DNA of 8,046 nt from an uncultured archaeon (GTDB lineage: Archaea > Asgardarchaeota > Lokiarchaeia > Sigyniarchaeales > Promethearchaeaceae): contig CAYRPF010000020.1 of NCBI GenBank assembly GCA_964426185.1, positions 34,245 to 42,290 of the forward strand, in the 5' to 3' direction. Of this stretch, positions 1,156 through 8,019 are shown piece by piece. Under the pieces are notes generated by a model. It worked only from the letters and a program-made list of their open reading frames with translations, searched no databases and was not told the DNA's origin. How positions within the stretch are numbered: position 1 is the first letter of the stretch; each line of letters opens with the position of its first letter. Made by a program: the position numbers and the translations under genes.

Positions 1156-2274
1156 TTAACGCTGATAAAGAATCTGTGTTCGAAATTGATGAAAATTTGC
1201 TGGTTTAATGTTTTCCATATTAATTTCAGGAATTTGAGAGAGATCTTGAGATTCTACAAATCGATGTAATATTCCTATTGCTTCTTGATTAGAAGGATGC
1301 TTTTCATGAAAATTATGCACACCCCGATCTTTACCCGCAGCTGAAGGATCACAAAGAATTCGGGTCTTGGATAGATCAGATTGGGTTAAAGCATGTTTAA
1401 TTACCCAGAATAAGGAATAAAACCAAGGGGATCGAAACTGGTTGTGCGCAGCCAACACACTGCAAATTGTATTCTGTTGGATATTGGTAGGATTAACGGA
1501 GATGGTTTCTACTCCCAATTTAACGCAATCTCGAATGGATTTTGTTAAATCCATGATTGCTGCATATTCAGAAAGAAATGGGGGTTTGAATAATAAATAA
1601 GCTTTTACTCCAAAACCGTATGAATGAACTCGCTCGACTGCTTTAACCACTTGTTCCCATTTAAATCCTTTATTTATTATGTCGGTTCGAATGTAATCAG
1701 AACTGCTTTCAATCCCGATGCCAATTTCTAAATATTGAGTAGAAATAATTTCCCGATATCTCGTTAAAATGGTAGAATTGAGGTATTCTGGGCGGGATTC
1801 TATTACTATTTCTTTGATATTGGAATATTGAGATAAAGTTCGTAATATTCGAAGCTGCAATTCTAAGTCCAATTCATTTGTGTCGCAAAAACTACCCGAA
1901 GTAAACATCTTGAAGACAATTGAGTGATCGTTATCAGTTAAAATATCTTTAAATTTTTCCATCACACTGGAAAATTGCTGCCAGTAATGCTCTGGTTGAA
2001 TTTCTCCATCGGCGCGATCATTCCAATAACCACACATGGTACACCCTCCAGAAGAAGAAGCTGCCCAACTACAAGCACGTGAACGGAAAATTAGTGTAAT
2101 TTCAGACCCCATTCCAGAGCGTAAGCGATCAGGTTTGGTGAAACATGCAACTGGCCTAGTAAATTGATGAGATTTAGCAGCTTTTTGGTGGCGCAAAGGT
2201 CGATTCCTCAAGTATTGCAATTCTTCTTGTAAATATTTCGTAGCATTTTTATAATGCGGTGGTTCGGCATTCAT
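1156..2274 (-). CDS. raSEA: Archaeosine biosynthesis radical SAM protein RaSEA (TIGR01210-like)
   Basis: IFRSRACSWAASSSGGCTMCGY (extended CxnCxxC), KMFTSGSF, IESRPEY, EIGIGIES, KAYLLFKPPFLSE, SVNPTNIQ and RSPW are typical of this family. Its ATG overlaps the arcS TGA (ATGA at 2274-2271). Confidence 0.9.
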   Translation of the reverse strand: MNAEPPHYKNATKYLQEELQYLRNRPLRHQKAAKSHQFTRPVACFTKPDRLRSGMGSEITLIFRSRACSWAASSSGGCTMCGYWNDRADGEIQPEHYWQQFSSVMEKFKDILTDNDHSIVFKMFTSGSFCDTNELDLELQLRILRTLSQYSNIKEIVIESRPEYLNSTILTRYREIISTQYLEIGIGIESSSDYIRTDIINKGFKWEQVVKAVERVHSYGFGVKAYLLFKPPFLSEYAAIMDLTKSIRDCVKLGVETISVNPTNIQQNTICSVLAAHNQFRSPWFYSLFWVIKHALTQSDLSKTRILCDPSAAGKDRGVHNFHEKHPSNQEAIGILHRFVESQDLSQIPEINMENIKPANFHQFRTQILYQR

Positions 2275-4619
2275 GATTCTATCTCCTTTAAAAATTCAAG
2301 ATCGAAATTACTTCCAGAAGATGAGTGATGTTTTAGCTTTTTTCGTAGTTTTACCACGATTCCATATTCGTTATCTTTCAAATCGCAAGGAGCTCGTATC
2401 AATTCCCCTACACCCATATATTCATTCTCAGAATTGATTACTACCATGTCATCGCCCGGATGACTGGAAACATCAATTTGATCAACAATTGGCATAAAAA
2501 CAGTAGTACCACCCATTTCTGTAGTTTGTAGAGTTACATAATTTCGGTGATGTGCAATTAAACGTTGAGCCCCTCTAGGAGTTAATTTAATGAAACCAGA
2601 ATCTGTATACAATCTTCCAATTTGGAATTTTCCTGCACCGTCATAAGTAAAAACTTCATAGTAAAGCGGATTTCGAGATTTATTCACAATTATGCCAGTT
2701 TCTAAGAAAAGATCTCCTGCGCCGCGTCCAAATTGATAATCTAAAGTGGCGCGAACCATTATTTCGGCTTCAGTTAAGTGATGTGTCCTTGACCAAACAA
2801 CATTGTGCGGATTTAATTGAGTTGATTTTAGGTTTGATTCAAGTTGATTTTTTTCCCAAGAATTTTTAATCGCTTTTAATATGGTTTCTAATGCTAGTAA
2901 TCCAGTTTTTGAAGCAGAAGAAGAATGAGTTTTTTCACCCATAGAATACTTCCAGATTATTTCTGGTGCAGCAGAATCGGATTTAATCATTTGTTCGGCG
3001 AATTTTGCTGCTGAATAATAACCACCATTAACATGAGCAAGTACCAATAAAGGATCTCCCGTTTCATTAGAATATTTCTTCAACCAATGAGCTAATAATT
3101 CTCCAGTTGTTTTAATTTCATAAGAATCCCATTCTCCAGTTACCGGAATGTCATAATGTGCGGCAGGAAAAATATGTTCAAGTTCTCTTGGAACCACACC
3201 TAAAGGAGAAGTGATGATAATTTGATGAACAAATGGAAATAACGTTTTTCCAAGAGTTTTACGAATAACTCTTTTAAAGGATTTATGGGATTTTGATTGA
3301 GAATAAGGTTTCGTAGCTGCACATGGTAAAATTATAACCATTCGATAAAATTGAGCCGGATAGATCTCTGTTTTTACCCGATTAATAAAATTCTGAACTT
3401 CTGGTCGAGTATATGATTCTGTACCAATGCAATTTACTCGATAATTGGAATTAAGTTTATATCTTGAATTAATTTCTTCTCCAAATTCATGGTCTATAAT
3501 TCTTAACATTGAAGCAGATTCAGGACTGGAATGGATTTGTTTTTCAAGATAGGTTCGAAGCGATCCTTCGTGATTATATTGCTCAATTTGTCGCATTTCT
3601 GATCGTGCGGTAAATATATTATGATATAATATTTCATACTGCTGTTCGATTGTTTCATGCCCTTTTCCTGGAAGATTAGATTCCAATAATTGACATCCTC
3701 GACATGAACAGAGAGGAAAATGCAGTTTTCTTAGCCAATCTCGCGATTGAGTTGAAAAATATAACCCTTGAAATGAATAAGCAAAAAGAGAATGGGTTTC
3801 AATACAGTCGAAACCTAAATAAACCGCCAGTGCATAATCTTGCGGAAAAATGTCCCCTCCAGCAATCCACATTAAATTAGAAGAGGTTTTAAGTTTAAAA
3901 TCAAAAATGAATTCTAAAATATCGGATTGGGCGCGTAAATTACTAAAGATATTTGTAAATTTTAGACCGAATAACAAACTCTCATGTTCATTAATCCAAG
4001 AAATATAGAATTCGCGAATATTTTTCATGGAAGTAAATGGAATCTCTAAAATAAAAGAAGCATTTGGGTGATTGGGAAAAATTTTATTAGAGTAATAAGC
4101 AAACCGGTCTTTTATTAATGCAAGTTCATATTCTCCATATCGATCATAGTTGGTATTGGGTAAATTTGCAGATAACACATGAATAGATGAATACAATGAT
4201 TTTTTGAGTGAATCTGAAATCTCGCTTTGAGATAACTCGTTTTTTTTCCTCAATTGTTCTAAATCGGAATTTTCCAAAGATGATATGCCATACAAATCAA
4301 GATTTTCTTTGATAATAGGAAAAAATTTTGATGAAATATCAACATCTCCATTTTTTGAAAATAACCCCAAAGGATCGTGCACTTGAGCTATAATGAAAGG
4401 ATTGACGGGAGCAAATATTAGTTTTAAAAAATCTGAACTGGTCAAGAACTCTTTATGATTAGTCGCATTTTTTTTTAATGTATAATTTGAGGATAAGGAA
4501 ATAATCTCTTGATATGAAAAAATTAGGTTTGGGGTATAATAATTTTTGTTTCCCCATTTAATCCGCCCCATGCGACTTAATCCTTGTTGATCTCTAATTT
4601 CAAATTTCACTTGTGGCAT
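2271..4619 (-). CDS. arcS: Archaeosine synthase ArcS (TgtA2; lysine transferase to preQ0-tRNA): degenerate TGT barrel, ArcS core and C-terminal PUA
   Basis: TGT-like start FEIRDQQGLSRMGRI, Zn site CSCRGC...YHN, ArcS hallmarks ILPCAATKPYSQSKSH, ITSPLGVVPRELE, PAAHYDIPVTGEW and LDYQFG, and a PUA-like C-terminus (HPGDDMVV...GVG...GIVVKLR). ATG at 4619 (782 aa) fits the TGT N-terminus better than TTG at 4679. Confidence 0.9.
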   Translation of the reverse strand: MPQVKFEIRDQQGLSRMGRIKWGNKNYYTPNLIFSYQEIISLSSNYTLKKNATNHKEFLTSSDFLKLIFAPVNPFIIAQVHDPLGLFSKNGDVDISSKFFPIIKENLDLYGISSLENSDLEQLRKKNELSQSEISDSLKKSLYSSIHVLSANLPNTNYDRYGEYELALIKDRFAYYSNKIFPNHPNASFILEIPFTSMKNIREFYISWINEHESLLFGLKFTNIFSNLRAQSDILEFIFDFKLKTSSNLMWIAGGDIFPQDYALAVYLGFDCIETHSLFAYSFQGLYFSTQSRDWLRKLHFPLCSCRGCQLLESNLPGKGHETIEQQYEILYHNIFTARSEMRQIEQYNHEGSLRTYLEKQIHSSPESASMLRIIDHEFGEEINSRYKLNSNYRVNCIGTESYTRPEVQNFINRVKTEIYPAQFYRMVIILPCAATKPYSQSKSHKSFKRVIRKTLGKTLFPFVHQIIITSPLGVVPRELEHIFPAAHYDIPVTGEWDSYEIKTTGELLAHWLKKYSNETGDPLLVLAHVNGGYYSAAKFAEQMIKSDSAAPEIIWKYSMGEKTHSSSASKTGLLALETILKAIKNSWEKNQLESNLKSTQLNPHNVVWSRTHHLTEAEIMVRATLDYQFGRGAGDLFLETGIIVNKSRNPLYYEVFTYDGAGKFQIGRLYTDSGFIKLTPRGAQRLIAHHRNYVTLQTTEMGGTTVFMPIVDQIDVSSHPGDDMVVINSENEYMGVGELIRAPCDLKDNEYGIVVKLRKKLKHHSSSGSNFDLEFLKEIES

Positions 4620-4682
4620 CTTAAGTAAAAACAAATTCAAGATTGTCAAAAAATTTTTCGGAATAAAATAATTGAGCAATAA

Positions 4683-5912
4683 CTAAGATTTTCGCCAATT
4701 TGATTGCATTTCATCAAGGTTCAAAGGATTTTTTTCTTTGGTCCAAGCAATGGGCTCTATTTCTCTATTTAAAGGATTTACAATATCTTGAAATGTAGCA
4801 TCTTGATAGATTTCTCTTGCCAACTGCATCAATCCTTGCATCCCAATTGGTTCTTCTTCTAACCAATGTGATTCCCAGATTTTTAGATGAGAAAAACTTT
4901 CATAAATCAGCTTACAGTATTTTTCTTGATTAGCTAAGATTTTATCCAAATATACAGTTTTTCCTTTTTCGGATTTAGGAATTAGACGATTTAAATGAAG
5001 GGCATCAACCGAAATAAATCTACGAGAGAGTTCTTCGGCTCGTTTGGCTTCTTCATAAGATGGTTTTTCAGGTATAGAAACTAATCTGAGTGAGCCAATC
5101 CCTTTTAATAATGTAGCAATCCTTTCACTCCGTTTTTCCATTTCATAAAGTAAATCCAAAATTTCCTGGGCTAAATTTTTTTGTTCCTCCTTATTTAAGG
5201 GGTTTGAAGGCTGTGCCTCACGATTTACGGCTCTTTTTGCCATCCATACTGCCGGTTGTGCCCACTTTGTTAATGATTTTAATTTATTGAAAGAATCTTG
5301 GAGCACGGAGATAATTTTGAGAGCAAGTTTCATCAATCGACGGGATGGATCAGCAGGAACTTCAAAGAGGGCAATCATATTTCCAGTAGGAGGAAAATCA
5401 CAAATAATTAAATCAAATTTCGGAAGGAATGGTCGCTCATCCAATGGAGTATTTTTTGATTGATCGAGTGCAATATAGTGGAGTTTACGTTCGCCTAAAG
5501 CTTCCATCGGATTCTCGGCATCCAAAATACTTTGAAAGAAAAGAGCATTTTTCATTGCTAACGGAAGATTCTCACTTCGGAGAGATTCTTCTACAATACT
5601 CTCTAATTGAGGAAGCAATGCCATTATTTTTGAAGATTTAAATAGTTCTCGCGTTTTTTGAGTAAGTTCTCCTGTATAACTAAGTGTATACAAATCAGGA
5701 TCTGGCTCAATTACATATAAATTTGGAGATACTTGAGTAATATCATTTCCGATATTTTTTTCAAATAGATCCGAGAGATTATGGGCGATGTCAAATGATA
5801 CTAAGAGAATTTTTTTCTGAGGTACTAATTGCGCTAAGTGAACAGCCGTAGCAGCTGAAATGGATGATTTCCCAACACCACCTTTCCCTCCAAGTACAAT
5901 GAGATTATCCAT
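4683..5912 (-). CDS. Single-domain ArsA/Get3(TRC40)-family SIMIBI ATPase with divergent switch motifs
   Basis: Deviant Walker A GGKGGVGKSS, switch I SFDIAHNLSDLF, switch II DFPPTGN, VSIPEKPSYEE, LNRL and EEPIG. There is one ATPase domain and only two Cys residues. Confidence 0.88.
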   Translation of the reverse strand: MDNLIVLGGKGGVGKSSISAATAVHLAQLVPQKKILLVSFDIAHNLSDLFEKNIGNDITQVSPNLYVIEPDPDLYTLSYTGELTQKTRELFKSSKIMALLPQLESIVEESLRSENLPLAMKNALFFQSILDAENPMEALGERKLHYIALDQSKNTPLDERPFLPKFDLIICDFPPTGNMIALFEVPADPSRRLMKLALKIISVLQDSFNKLKSLTKWAQPAVWMAKRAVNREAQPSNPLNKEEQKNLAQEILDLLYEMEKRSERIATLLKGIGSLRLVSIPEKPSYEEAKRAEELSRRFISVDALHLNRLIPKSEKGKTVYLDKILANQEKYCKLIYESFSHLKIWESHWLEEEPIGMQGLMQLAREIYQDATFQDIVNPLNREIEPIAWTKEKNPLNLDEMQSNWRKS

Positions 5913-5934: not shown

Positions 5935-6440
5935 CTACAAAAAAGAATTCTTCTTTTTCACAACCCAAATATTTTTATTTTTAAAGAATTTAAATATAAA
6001 TGAGGATAATACTCCTCAAGTTACAAGAAAATTCACGACTCACAAATGAACTCTTCTAAATTTCCCTTCCTACGAAAAGCAGAATGGTTCAGTGTTCATC
6101 GTGAATGTTAATAGATAAATATATCATAACCTTTATCAAATATTTCATCTATTATCCTAACAATATCACATATCACAATTACATCAAATATCATCCAAAT
6201 TCAATTATTACCACGAAATTAAAGATAATAATTACAATATGGAATATATATAAACAAAACCATATCACAAAGGAAGAAGAAATATCCCATAGATAGAACA
6301 TCTTAGGGTAAAATAAATGGAAACCTATTCGATTATAATTACGAATTATCAGATTTACCATTCTCAAATAAAAAGTTCATCTTGCCCATTAACATAGGAG
6401 AAAATATAATCATTTAACCACAATAATCAAATTAAAATTA
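5935..6440 (-). ncRNA. Candidate ~500-nt structured RNA (long 5' leader of the ATPase-arcS-raSEA operon, or an independent ncRNA)
   Basis: Consecutive non-overlapping hairpins at 6407-6440, 6316-6362, 6238-6291, 6203-6233, 6157-6198 (weak), 6109-6154, 6031-6106, 6001-6018 and 5935-5963. Single mismatches inside stems are A-C on + and therefore G-U on -. No known family recognised; folded by hand only. Confidence 0.5.
6001..6018. promoter_or_regulatory. Palindrome TGAGGA-N6-TCCTCA abutting a minus-strand TATA-like TTTATATT (6000-5993)
   Basis: The perfect 6-bp dyad is seen directly. It could be an operator at the BRE position of a proximal promoter or simply a small RNA hairpin. Confidence 0.35.
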
Positions 6441-6464
6441 AGAATTATCTAAACACAAAATTTA

Positions 6465-6473
6465 GTTTTAAAT
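6465..6473. promoter_or_regulatory. Putative bidirectional TATA element (+ TTTTAAAT 6466-6473; - TTTAAAAC 6472-6465)
   Basis: Resembles the archaeal TTTAWAW box on both strands and lies at the point where A/C-rich sequence switches to G/T-rich. The predicted starts (~6442 on -, ~6496 on +) coincide with the first hairpin on each side. Such motifs are common in AT-rich DNA. Confidence 0.35.
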
Positions 6474-6480
6474 TCATAAT

Positions 6481-6668
6481 AAATGAAATTCAATCATTTT
6501 GATTTTGTGATTTGAAATTCAGTGTGAATTTTTGTGGAATAAAATTTGGTTTCATTTCTCCAAGGTTAATGAAGACAACCTGATCCTTGAGACTTTAAAA
6601 TCATTTTCTTCTTTCGTTTGGTGATTTATTGTTTTGTTTTGTGAAAAAACAAAAGAAACAGTGAATTA
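6481..6668 (+). ncRNA. Candidate structured 5' leader of dnaG (three hairpins, one carrying box C/D-like motifs)
   Basis: H1 6481-6557 (AAATGAAA/TTTCATTT base, AAATTCA-GTG-TGAATTT apex, G-U-rich middle). H2 6557-6592 (CAAGG...ATGAAGA-CAAC-CTGA...CCTTG). H3 6622-6668 (20 bp, 4 G-U pairs, 1 bulge). The wobbles work only on the + strand. Confidence 0.5.
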
Positions 6669-6672
6669 GACT

Positions 6673-8019
6673 ATGACAAAAGGAATTAACGAAAATATTG
6701 ATCAAGCAAGCGCAAAATACAATATCGTCGCAAATTTCACCGTAAATGGAGTGGTGGAAGTACAAGATATTGTTGGTGCATTATTTGGTCAAACAGAAGG
6801 TCTATTAGACTCTTTAGAATTACGCGAATTACAGAAAACAGGACGAATTGGACGCATTGTGGTAAATGCGGCTTCAGAAAAAGGAATTACTACGGGAGAA
6901 ATAGTCATTCCTTCCAGTTTAGATCGGACTGAAACTGCAATTTTAGCGGCCACCTTGGAAACAGTAGATCGCGTAGGACCTTGTAGAGCATCCCTTCAAC
7001 TAAAAGAAATTAAAGATTTACGTAAATCAAAACTCGCACAAATTGAAGCGCGGGCGAAAGAACTTTTAAAGGATTGGAAAGCTGATTCAGCAGATAGAAA
7101 TTCAATTTCAGAAAAAATTACTAACGAACTAGAGAAGGAATCGGTGATTACTTGGAATGGGTTACCTGCTGGTGACCAAATTGACAATGCAGATGAGATA
7201 ATTATTGTTGAAGGTCGAAATGATATTCAACAATTGCTTAAAATTGGAGTTAGAAATACCGTAGCGGTAAATGGAACTTCAATTCCCAAAGTAATTGTAG
7301 ATTTAACTCAACAAAAAGACTGTACTGCTTTTTTAGATGGAGATAGAGGAGGAGAAATGATCTTAAATGAACTATTACAAGTATCTAAGATTAAATACTA
7401 CGCACGTGCTCCTCAAAATAAGGAAGTCGAAGAATTAACACCAAAAGAAATGGTAAGCTGCCTTCAAAATAAGCGCCCAATTTCTGATTTGTTAACAGAA
7501 CGCCGAAAACGAATTGAAAAACCAATTACTTCACAGTTTCCACGAAAATCAACGTCTCTAAGAAAGTATACAAAAACAAAAGGAAACTATACTTCTTCAC
7601 GACCAGGAAAGGATCATTCCCCTCGAATGAAACGTAGTTTTGGAGGGAATCGAACCAATCGAAATACTCAAATTGAAAGATCAAATCGTCGTTTTAAAAA
7701 GGACAAAACAGATAGACCAAAAATCTCCTTACCAAAAGATAAAATTGCACCCGTAGTCAAAGAAATAATTTCAAGTAATTTAGCAGTTGGATTAAATGAC
7801 TATTTTGAAGAGATTCATCGTAGTTCAAATGTTAAAATTTTCGATGAATTGAATCATAAAATGACTACTATTATTTTAGATGGAGTTGTAAGCCAAAGGT
7901 TTTTAGACGAAGCACTAAAACACCATGTAAAATATATTGTAGCAGTAAATATTGATCGAAATTTGAAAGTGGAAAATCCATCCGCAATTGAGTTATATTA
8001 CTTCAAAGATTTTCTCTAA
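6673..8019 (+). CDS. dnaG: Archaeal DnaG (bacterial-primase-like TOPRIM protein, known as an exosome-associated RNA-binding subunit)
   Basis: N-domain GVVEVQDIVGALFGQTEGLL...LRELQKTGRIGRI and PSSLDRTETAILAATLETVDRVGPC, TOPRIM IIIVEGRND...AFLDGDRGG, ARAP..KEVEEL, and C-domain IILDGVVSQRFLD. Confidence 0.97.
   Translation: MTKGINENIDQASAKYNIVANFTVNGVVEVQDIVGALFGQTEGLLDSLELRELQKTGRIGRIVVNAASEKGITTGEIVIPSSLDRTETAILAATLETVDRVGPCRASLQLKEIKDLRKSKLAQIEARAKELLKDWKADSADRNSISEKITNELEKESVITWNGLPAGDQIDNADEIIIVEGRNDIQQLLKIGVRNTVAVNGTSIPKVIVDLTQQKDCTAFLDGDRGGEMILNELLQVSKIKYYARAPQNKEVEELTPKEMVSCLQNKRPISDLLTERRKRIEKPITSQFPRKSTSLRKYTKTKGNYTSSRPGKDHSPRMKRSFGGNRTNRNTQIERSNRRFKKDKTDRPKISLPKDKIAPVVKEIISSNLAVGLNDYFEEIHRSSNVKIFDELNHKMTTIILDGVVSQRFLDEALKHHVKYIVAVNIDRNLKVENPSAIELYYFKDFL

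Follow-up and report, generated by a model that had tools for sequence, protein, structure and literature searches.

Most likely, the spacer between dnaG and get3 of a Promethearchaeaceae archaeon encodes a conserved, undescribed structured RNA that lies on the strand opposite to the one first proposed and belongs to a different gene. An initial annotation had placed a large structured RNA of no recognized family on the minus strand at 5935-6440, upstream of the get3/arcS/raSEA operon. The structured RNA itself stands up: the element is conserved, non-coding and without a match in Rfam. It is larger than first delimited, however, spanning 6002-6672 (Table 1). In our preferred reading, to which we assign a probability of about 0.58, it forms a structured 5′ leader of the dnaG mRNA of approximately 670 nt, and its likeliest job is post-transcriptional control of the DnaG level. 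Such a leader would exceed reported archaeal leaders severalfold and would precede an exosome gene in the archaea that, among those in culture, are most closely related to eukaryotes. Among the open papers searched, we found none that describes regulatory RNAs or transcription start sites of Asgard archaea.

Genomic setting

The window, that is the whole 8,046-nt stretch of DNA analyzed here, derives from a 3.26-Mb genome of 34% GC that encodes a selenocysteine tRNA. Its minus strand carries raSEA, arcS and the gene of a Get3/TRC40 ATPase, and its plus strand carries archaeal dnaG. The two genes flanking the spacer are divergent (get3 start 5912, dnaG start 6673) and lie 760 nt apart. The window DnaG is 77% identical to a protein of Ca. 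Harpocratesius sp., and that protein is 95% identical to the DnaG of the related genome G001; we infer that the window genome is that of a Lokiarchaeon, a Harpocratesius-like member of Promethearchaeaceae, with G001 in the same genus. Two further relatives encode DnaG sequences identical to those of Ca. Lokiarchaeum ossiferum (G010) and Promethearchaeum syntrophicum (G011).

Also present in the genome are exosome genes for Csl4 and for two RNase PH subunits, the latter two adjacent. The window DnaG displays a KY pair at residues 15-16, putatively equivalent to the essential K6/Y7, an equation made by position rather than by alignment. Downstream of dnaG in L152-L162 lies a conserved convergent cluster of secE, ftsY, prefoldin, L18a/LX and eIF6 genes, so that dnaG appears to be monocistronic. 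On the far side of get3, the ArcS-like protein (2271-4679, minus strand; 802 amino acids) carries about 250 extra N-terminal residues outside the ArcS profile; it scores below the ArcS cut-off and shows a weak TGT match. Elsewhere in the window genome (G000; L175, C12:24171-24832), an apparent long intergenic region upstream of a Pth2-like gene contains two short ORFs that by eye resemble the ribosomal proteins L40e and L38e.

Table 1. Features of the dnaG-get3 spacer and its flanking genes, in window coordinates.
Feature	Position	Strand	Basis
get3/TRC40-family ATPase, divergent neighbor	4683-5912	-	TIGR00345, 136.7 bits (cut-off 135)
Predicted separate get3 promoter, near-leaderless	5940-5954	-	Weak matrix score here (4.6); AUG 27 nt downstream
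Predicted archaeal promoter: BRE 5965-5971, T-rich TATA box 5972-5979	5965-5979	+	Top of 1506 spacer sites, both strands
A-rich structured RNA, predicted 5′ leader of dnaG (~670 nt)	6002-6672	+	Predicted start T6001/G6002; folding z-score
H1, hairpin at the extreme 5′ end	6002-6017	+	Pair probability 0.98
P2, long stem with interruptions, conserved 5′ domain	6031-6106	+	Folding and homolog alignments
P3, second stem of the 5′ domain	6109-6154	+	Compensatory A-U to G-C change in G002/L161
A/C-rich linker, unpaired; candidate site of protein binding	6155-6200	+	Unpaired in MFE and centroid structures
P4 hairpin	6203-6233	+	Probability 0.94; kept in G001 and L152
Predicted nested long-range rod: A-rich arm 6272-6423 with U-rich arm 6532-6615	6272-6615	+	Helix probabilities 0.71-0.99
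Seven U4-U5 tracts, possible aCPSF1 termination/attenuation signals	6466-6640	+	None in 6002-6465
AGUGA of dnaG, Shine-Dalgarno-like, preceded by an A-rich stretch	6660-6664	+	GUGA core in 16/19 loci
dnaG, archaeal DnaG (exosome RNA-binding subunit)	6673-8019	+	NF003108, 412 bits (cut-off 300), profile 1-411/419

Promoters on either side of the spacer

We scored the spacer with a promoter matrix trained solely on the 26 tRNA upstream regions of the window genome. The top-ranked site sits 22 nt before G6002, the first base of hairpin H1. Equivalent sites rank first in G001, L152 and L073 as well, and in 17 of 18 loci they are among the 25 best of 1500-3000 sites, with a gap of 22-23 nt kept in 13. 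They score at least 2.6 in 17 of the 18, compared to a median of −2.9 in random intergenic windows. Read towards dnaG, the homologs display a BRE and a T-rich TATA box, and the first hairpin base coincides with a pyrimidine-purine step. For L153, L158, L159 and L160 the 5′ end was picked by eye; L158 lacks a good promoter site. By the same matrix, the 200 nt immediately preceding dnaG contain no site that scores above shuffles (all p≥0.35), and neither does the minus strand beyond +380 (all p≥0.075). By prediction, the element thus shows the arrangement of a dnaG leader, with a sense-strand promoter upstream and none between that promoter and the gene.

On the other side, get3 appears to have its own promoter. 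The predicted site is stronger, at similar spacing, in G001, G010 and L154, and 10 of 15 loci have a promoter-like site 26-43 nt ahead of the get3 start. A get3 leader would call for a minus-strand promoter upstream of the stems and no separate get3 promoter; no conserved promoter of that kind was found upstream, and get3 has a predicted one of its own. Moreover, in Promethearchaeum other genes separate the element from get3, whereas it still adjoins dnaG. The proposed role as a leader of the get3/arcS/raSEA operon therefore probably does not hold, and get3 is unlikely to be the target of the spacer RNA. The outermost stem of the initial annotation (5963-5935), which is not conserved in G001, coincides with the A-run and T-run of the predicted get3 promoter. 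At 5940-5979, the window contains two predicted promoters that diverge back to back, with about 10 nt between them. The form that promoters take here, an A-run followed by a T-run, is palindromic and can be mistaken for a hairpin.

Folding, strand and covariation

Against dinucleotide shuffles, 5935-6440 folds better than expected on both strands, slightly more so on the plus strand (z −2.96) than on the minus strand (z −2.45), contrary to the minus-strand specificity that had been claimed. Across 6002-6672 the z-scores are −3.82 (plus) and −2.89 (minus). In the homologs, z is lower on the plus strand for the first 300 nt in 15 of 18, and for consensus folding in all five alignments (plus versus minus, −10.1 versus −5.3 in Lokiarchaeum and −7.7 versus −5.1 in Harpocratesius, absolute values that are inflated by column shuffling). 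The Lokiarchaeum consensus energy is −37.1 kcal/mol on the plus and −28.0 on the minus strand; in Harpocratesius, the genus of the window, the raw consensus energy is lower on the minus strand (−22.2 versus −18.6 on the plus strand). Because the minus strand is rich in G and U, both its G-U pairs and its lower raw energies are to be expected. The same skew explains the stem imperfections that read as G-U on the minus strand and had been taken as a sign of a minus-strand RNA. Counting G-U pairs automatically selects the G/U-rich strand and can thereby invert a strand call.

The eight stems of the initial annotation can all be drawn on the minus strand where they were placed, but several are not conserved helices. 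Those at 6001-6018, 6031-6106, 6109-6154 and 6203-6233 are real and belong to the conserved block, yet they are mostly Watson-Crick and form on either strand. By contrast, the stem at 6440-6407 needs G-U pairs, is absent on the plus strand and corresponds to no conserved helix in relatives, and the stem at 6291-6238 retains 0.8 expected pairs in the minus-strand ensemble and likewise lacks a conserved counterpart.

Substitutions between relatives lean towards the plus strand. Changes to G-U affect seven paired positions on the plus strand of Lokiarchaeum and three on the minus strand, and G-U substitutions in H1 fit the plus strand in L161 and in Promethearchaeum; a strand-neutral count of G-U against A-C over all groups gives only 13 to 8. 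In the Lokiarchaeum 5′ domain, 95% of cells are paired and five pairs are changed on both sides (slid controls, 33-46%), statistics that come from four related sequences, the same ones that yielded the structure. A cross-genus MAFFT alignment retains P3 as its sole consensus stem, since MAFFT misaligns helices across genera. The covariation anticipated for homologous spacers appears as compensatory changes in the 5′ domain, on few related sequences; covariation support for a conserved sense-strand structure is modest.

Together, the promoter, the folding z-scores and consensus folding, the G-U changes and the avoidance of U tracts described below argue that the RNA is very probably encoded on the plus strand and starts at the predicted T6001/G6002. 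A minus-strand RNA running from about 6440 to 5935, be it a get3 operon leader or a small RNA as first modeled, is consistent with stems drawable with G-U pairs, with the lower raw energies, and with a terminator-like score of the 6018-6001 hairpin and its tail. Against it, we found no conserved minus-strand promoter upstream of the stems, the U-rich tail is missing in most homologs, the z-scores favor the plus strand, the transcript would bear about 25 U4 tracts per kb, and get3 appears to be driven by a promoter of its own and, in Promethearchaeum, does not adjoin the element. We therefore regard a minus-strand RNA as highly improbable.

By best-window z, the spacer ranks 23rd among 107 long intergenic regions of the genome, so hairpin density alone would not justify calling an RNA. 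Folding alone is not exceptional; rather, conservation, promoter geometry and the U-tract pattern exceed chance. The ranking, the weak covariation statistics and the many Watson-Crick core stems, which are also DNA palindromes, would suit a long promoter region or DNA element (protein sites, an origin-like skew) in which inverted repeats arose by chance and no RNA structure is selected. Such an element would, however, explain neither the strand-asymmetric depletion of U4 tracts, nor G-U-tolerant changes on one strand, nor compensatory changes, nor the fixed promoter-to-hairpin spacing, and we consider it unlikely.

Conservation among relatives

We collected 21 spacers from related genomes and contigs, and the tests use 18 or 19 loci; G005, G008 and G004 have long spacers in which the element could not be placed confidently. 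A gene-free dnaG-get3 spacer is conserved across Promethearchaeaceae, with no called genes in ten annotated contigs. It measures 760-965 nt where get3 adjoins, and two spacers reach about 1500 nt or more. The predicted leaders of the homologs span 652-815 nt (median 749), apart from one of 1384 nt (L157:1117-2500), twice the usual distance between predicted start and dnaG and without a called gene. In P. syntrophicum MK-D1 and L. ossiferum the plus-strand start is predicted 723 nt and 751 nt ahead of the AUG, respectively. Window positions 5965-6257 match G001 at 75% identity (E 5e-49), and G002 gives a partial match. Conservation is highest in the 5′ 160 nt, at 76% identity to G001 and 64% to L. 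ossiferum over a shuffle baseline of 55%.

Sequence turnover between genera is fast. A sequence-only profile (R1) detects just Harpocratesius and Lokiarchaeum, 5 of 101 genomes; in Promethearchaeum and five further lineages the correspondence is by position, length, composition and layout rather than by sequence. Linkage to the downstream dnaG is nevertheless fixed in 19 loci, also where get3 is displaced. BLAST and profile searches find the element in single copy per genome, ruling out a dispersed repeat or mobile element. In G002, a short tandem duplication covers the promoter/H1 junction (L003:1345-1385).

In the sister family, a small ORF occupies part of the spacer, with 200-530 nt remaining ahead of dnaG, suggesting that, among the genomes searched, the giant leader may be limited to Promethearchaeaceae. 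This ORF (53-66 amino acids, on the get3 strand between dnaG and get3) is conserved in 12 of 12 loci examined (L013, L016-L020, L022, L024, L025, L027, L029 and L030), with an N-terminal YW, a central GR-aromatic and a C-terminal FF(P) motif, and is absent from translated Promethearchaeaceae spacers.

No Rfam covariance model matched the spacer below E 5, the one hit at E=5 being a chance snoRNA match, and none matched 10 homologous loci or 20 distant dnaG loci. The archaeal SRP RNA (RF01857; C10:54346-54663), the archaeal RNase P RNA (RF00373; C10:45377-45665) and 5S rRNA (RF00001; C73 and C40) are encoded elsewhere in the genome. SRP and RNase P RNAs score under the Rfam gathering thresholds in these genomes, and the model search found no RNase P RNA in G010. 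A C/D box guide RNA was rejected, as 18 of 19 leaders have no plus-strand C box, and so was a SECIS-like tandem GA motif on the minus strand, which is not conserved in relatives.

The spacers contain no conserved peptide or ORF; relatives differ by frameshifting indels. One candidate for a leader peptide gene is the plus-strand ORF 6105-6296. In 8 of 9 Harpocratesius/Lokiarchaeum loci its AUG falls within the junction of P2 and P3, which is nearly invariant. This ORF is frameshifted between close relatives, with lengths of 27-63 amino acids, loses its AUG in G006 and has no Promethearchaeum equivalent; its length is not beyond shuffles here (p 0.07), and it yields neither a Pfam match nor a conserved peptide. 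That it is the functional unit of the spacer is the least likely of the explanations considered here.

Architecture of the predicted leader

In transcript order, the predicted RNA would comprise the 5′ hairpin, a domain of two stems, an A-rich linker, a rod, an A-rich stretch, the Shine-Dalgarno sequence and the dnaG start codon. The 5′ hairpin can be drawn in 19 of 19 leaders, for which it served as the anchor. The first 300 nt of the leaders contain 36-53% A, preferentially unpaired, and in the homologs A content peaks in the linker (49-54%). K-mer searches recovered no shared motif clearly over shuffles except the Shine-Dalgarno sequence. Pairing of the 5′ segment with the Shine-Dalgarno sequence, which a translational switch acting by sequestration would conserve, reaches p<0.05 in 5 of 19 leaders (median p 0.15). 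In the window, a predicted local hairpin of 14+6 bp (6622-6668, plus strand) covers this sequence, and most homologs are more open.

All 18 folded homologs contain helices that span more than 200 nt and usually end 20-60 nt before the AUG. The duplex between the two arms reaches z≤−2 in 11 of 18 homologs and z≤−3 in 8 of 18, as compared with 2 and 1, respectively, of 74 control intergenic regions; of 15 pairings across genera, 2 and 1 reach these values. The window's own arm duplex is weak (z −1.2). Of the long-range pairs predicted from single sequences, 55 are kept in close relatives versus 49 expected, and 141 are broken. Because individual pairs are not retained above expectation, support for the modeled rod applies to a tendency and does not extend to single pairs.

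The distribution of U tracts is polarized. On the plus strand, the 5′ ~500 nt of the leaders contain 13 U4 tracts where 46 are expected (10 versus 22.5 when one locus is counted for each of 10 lineages), whereas A4 runs, which would be U runs on the minus strand, occur at expectation (230 versus 232, about 25 per kb). Almost all U4 tracts lie in the last 220 nt, at 16.7 per kb (shuffle level 13.5 per kb). These terminal tracts are mostly predicted to be paired, often over long range and often to the A-rich arm.

Does the RNA extend into dnaG? The lack of a promoter in the last 200 nt, together with the Shine-Dalgarno sequence of dnaG, makes the upstream promoter the likeliest source of dnaG transcripts. 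Since no internal promoter intervenes and +250-420 pairs over long range with the last 190 nt, the RNA is probably continuous with dnaG, up to the ribosome-binding site. A serious rival is a stand-alone plus-strand non-coding RNA, about 500-640 nt long, that has its 3′ end at the U tracts and acts in trans, for instance as an exosome or Sm scaffold or decoy, while dnaG is expressed by read-through or from a promoter missed by the matrix. In line with this alternative, the element has its own strong promoter and 5′ hairpin, its closed long-range fold ends short of the AUG in most homologs, U tracts lie at its 3′ end, and its length is far over that of typical archaeal leaders (PMC4983044). Yet dnaG has no second promoter before it and a Shine-Dalgarno sequence that requires a leader, the RNA always stays with dnaG where get3 is displaced, and it turns over fast between genera, unlike SRP and RNase P RNAs, which are still detectable with Rfam here. 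On balance we consider a stand-alone RNA rather improbable; it would be compatible with attenuation.

A possible feedback on dnaG

The dnaG leader, as we read it, suggests a route for regulation. DnaG of archaea belongs to the exosome and uses its N-terminal domain to bind A-rich RNA (PMC3672285, PMC4227792), and U tracts are the signal for aCPSF1, including its Lokiarchaeal orthologue (PMC8716108). Joining the A-rich arm, the A-preference of DnaG and the paired U tracts, one can envision that the promoter at 5965-5979 would start a plus-strand transcript near G6002, in which the rod would hide the leader's only U4 tracts from the termination nuclease aCPSF1. Excess DnaG, or the DnaG-exosome, might then bind the A-rich arm or linker, which would expose the U tracts or recruit decay and so cut dnaG expression in a negative feedback. 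We propose such feedback through attenuation tentatively, as a possibility on the doubtful side. Indeed, one observation speaks against it: runs of at least five A are not enriched in the leaders, although iCLIP has implicated short poly(A) stretches as an exosome recruitment signal (PMC7667871).

A bolder version, to which we give somewhat less credence still, treats the element as an RNA sensor of about 700 nt, in which the A-rich arm would mask the aCPSF1 U tracts until opened by DnaG, or in which the terminated product would persist as a stable trans-acting RNA. If true, RNA-decay capacity would be coupled to premature termination, in an attenuator built from archaeal forerunners of the exosome and CPSF machinery of eukaryotes. 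Homologs of the element occur in the cultured P. syntrophicum and L. ossiferum, and Lokiarchaeal aCPSF1 is known to work in a methanogen.

Comparison with known systems

Like archaeal SRP RNA, RNase P RNA and 5S rRNA, the element is a large structured RNA with its own predicted promoter; those RNAs differ in being encoded elsewhere in the genome and without a match to the spacer. It shares clustered U4 tracts with aCPSF1-dependent terminators, but its tracts lie upstream of the gene and are predicted to be base-paired, and their use in an attenuator would be a departure. Eukaryotic PABP autoregulates through an A-rich 5′ UTR. The parallel lies in an A-preferring RNA-binding protein whose own mRNA carries an A-rich leader; the dnaG leader differs in being heavily structured and without poly(A) enrichment.

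Archaeal 5′ UTRs are mostly 150-200 nt long in Methanosarcina mazei and reach up to 250 nt in Haloferax (PMC4983044). Such long 5′ UTRs resemble the predicted dnaG leader as Shine-Dalgarno-containing leaders with room for regulatory structure, whereas the dnaG leader would be three to four times as long and would combine a conserved multi-domain fold with a polarized A-rich/U-rich design.

In its mode of action, the predicted dnaG leader would come nearest to the leader of the E. coli rne mRNA, which is about 360 nt long. The dnaG leader is archaeal, about twice as long and without an Rfam match or sequence link to rne; DnaG is an RNA-binding exosome subunit whereas RNase E is an endonuclease, and feedback is proposed for dnaG. 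In the rne leader, structure is kept despite ~70% sequence divergence and mediates feedback (PMC13692253). What the two have in common is a long structured leader on an RNA-decay gene, built from a 5′ hairpin, stem-loops and an unpaired initiation region.
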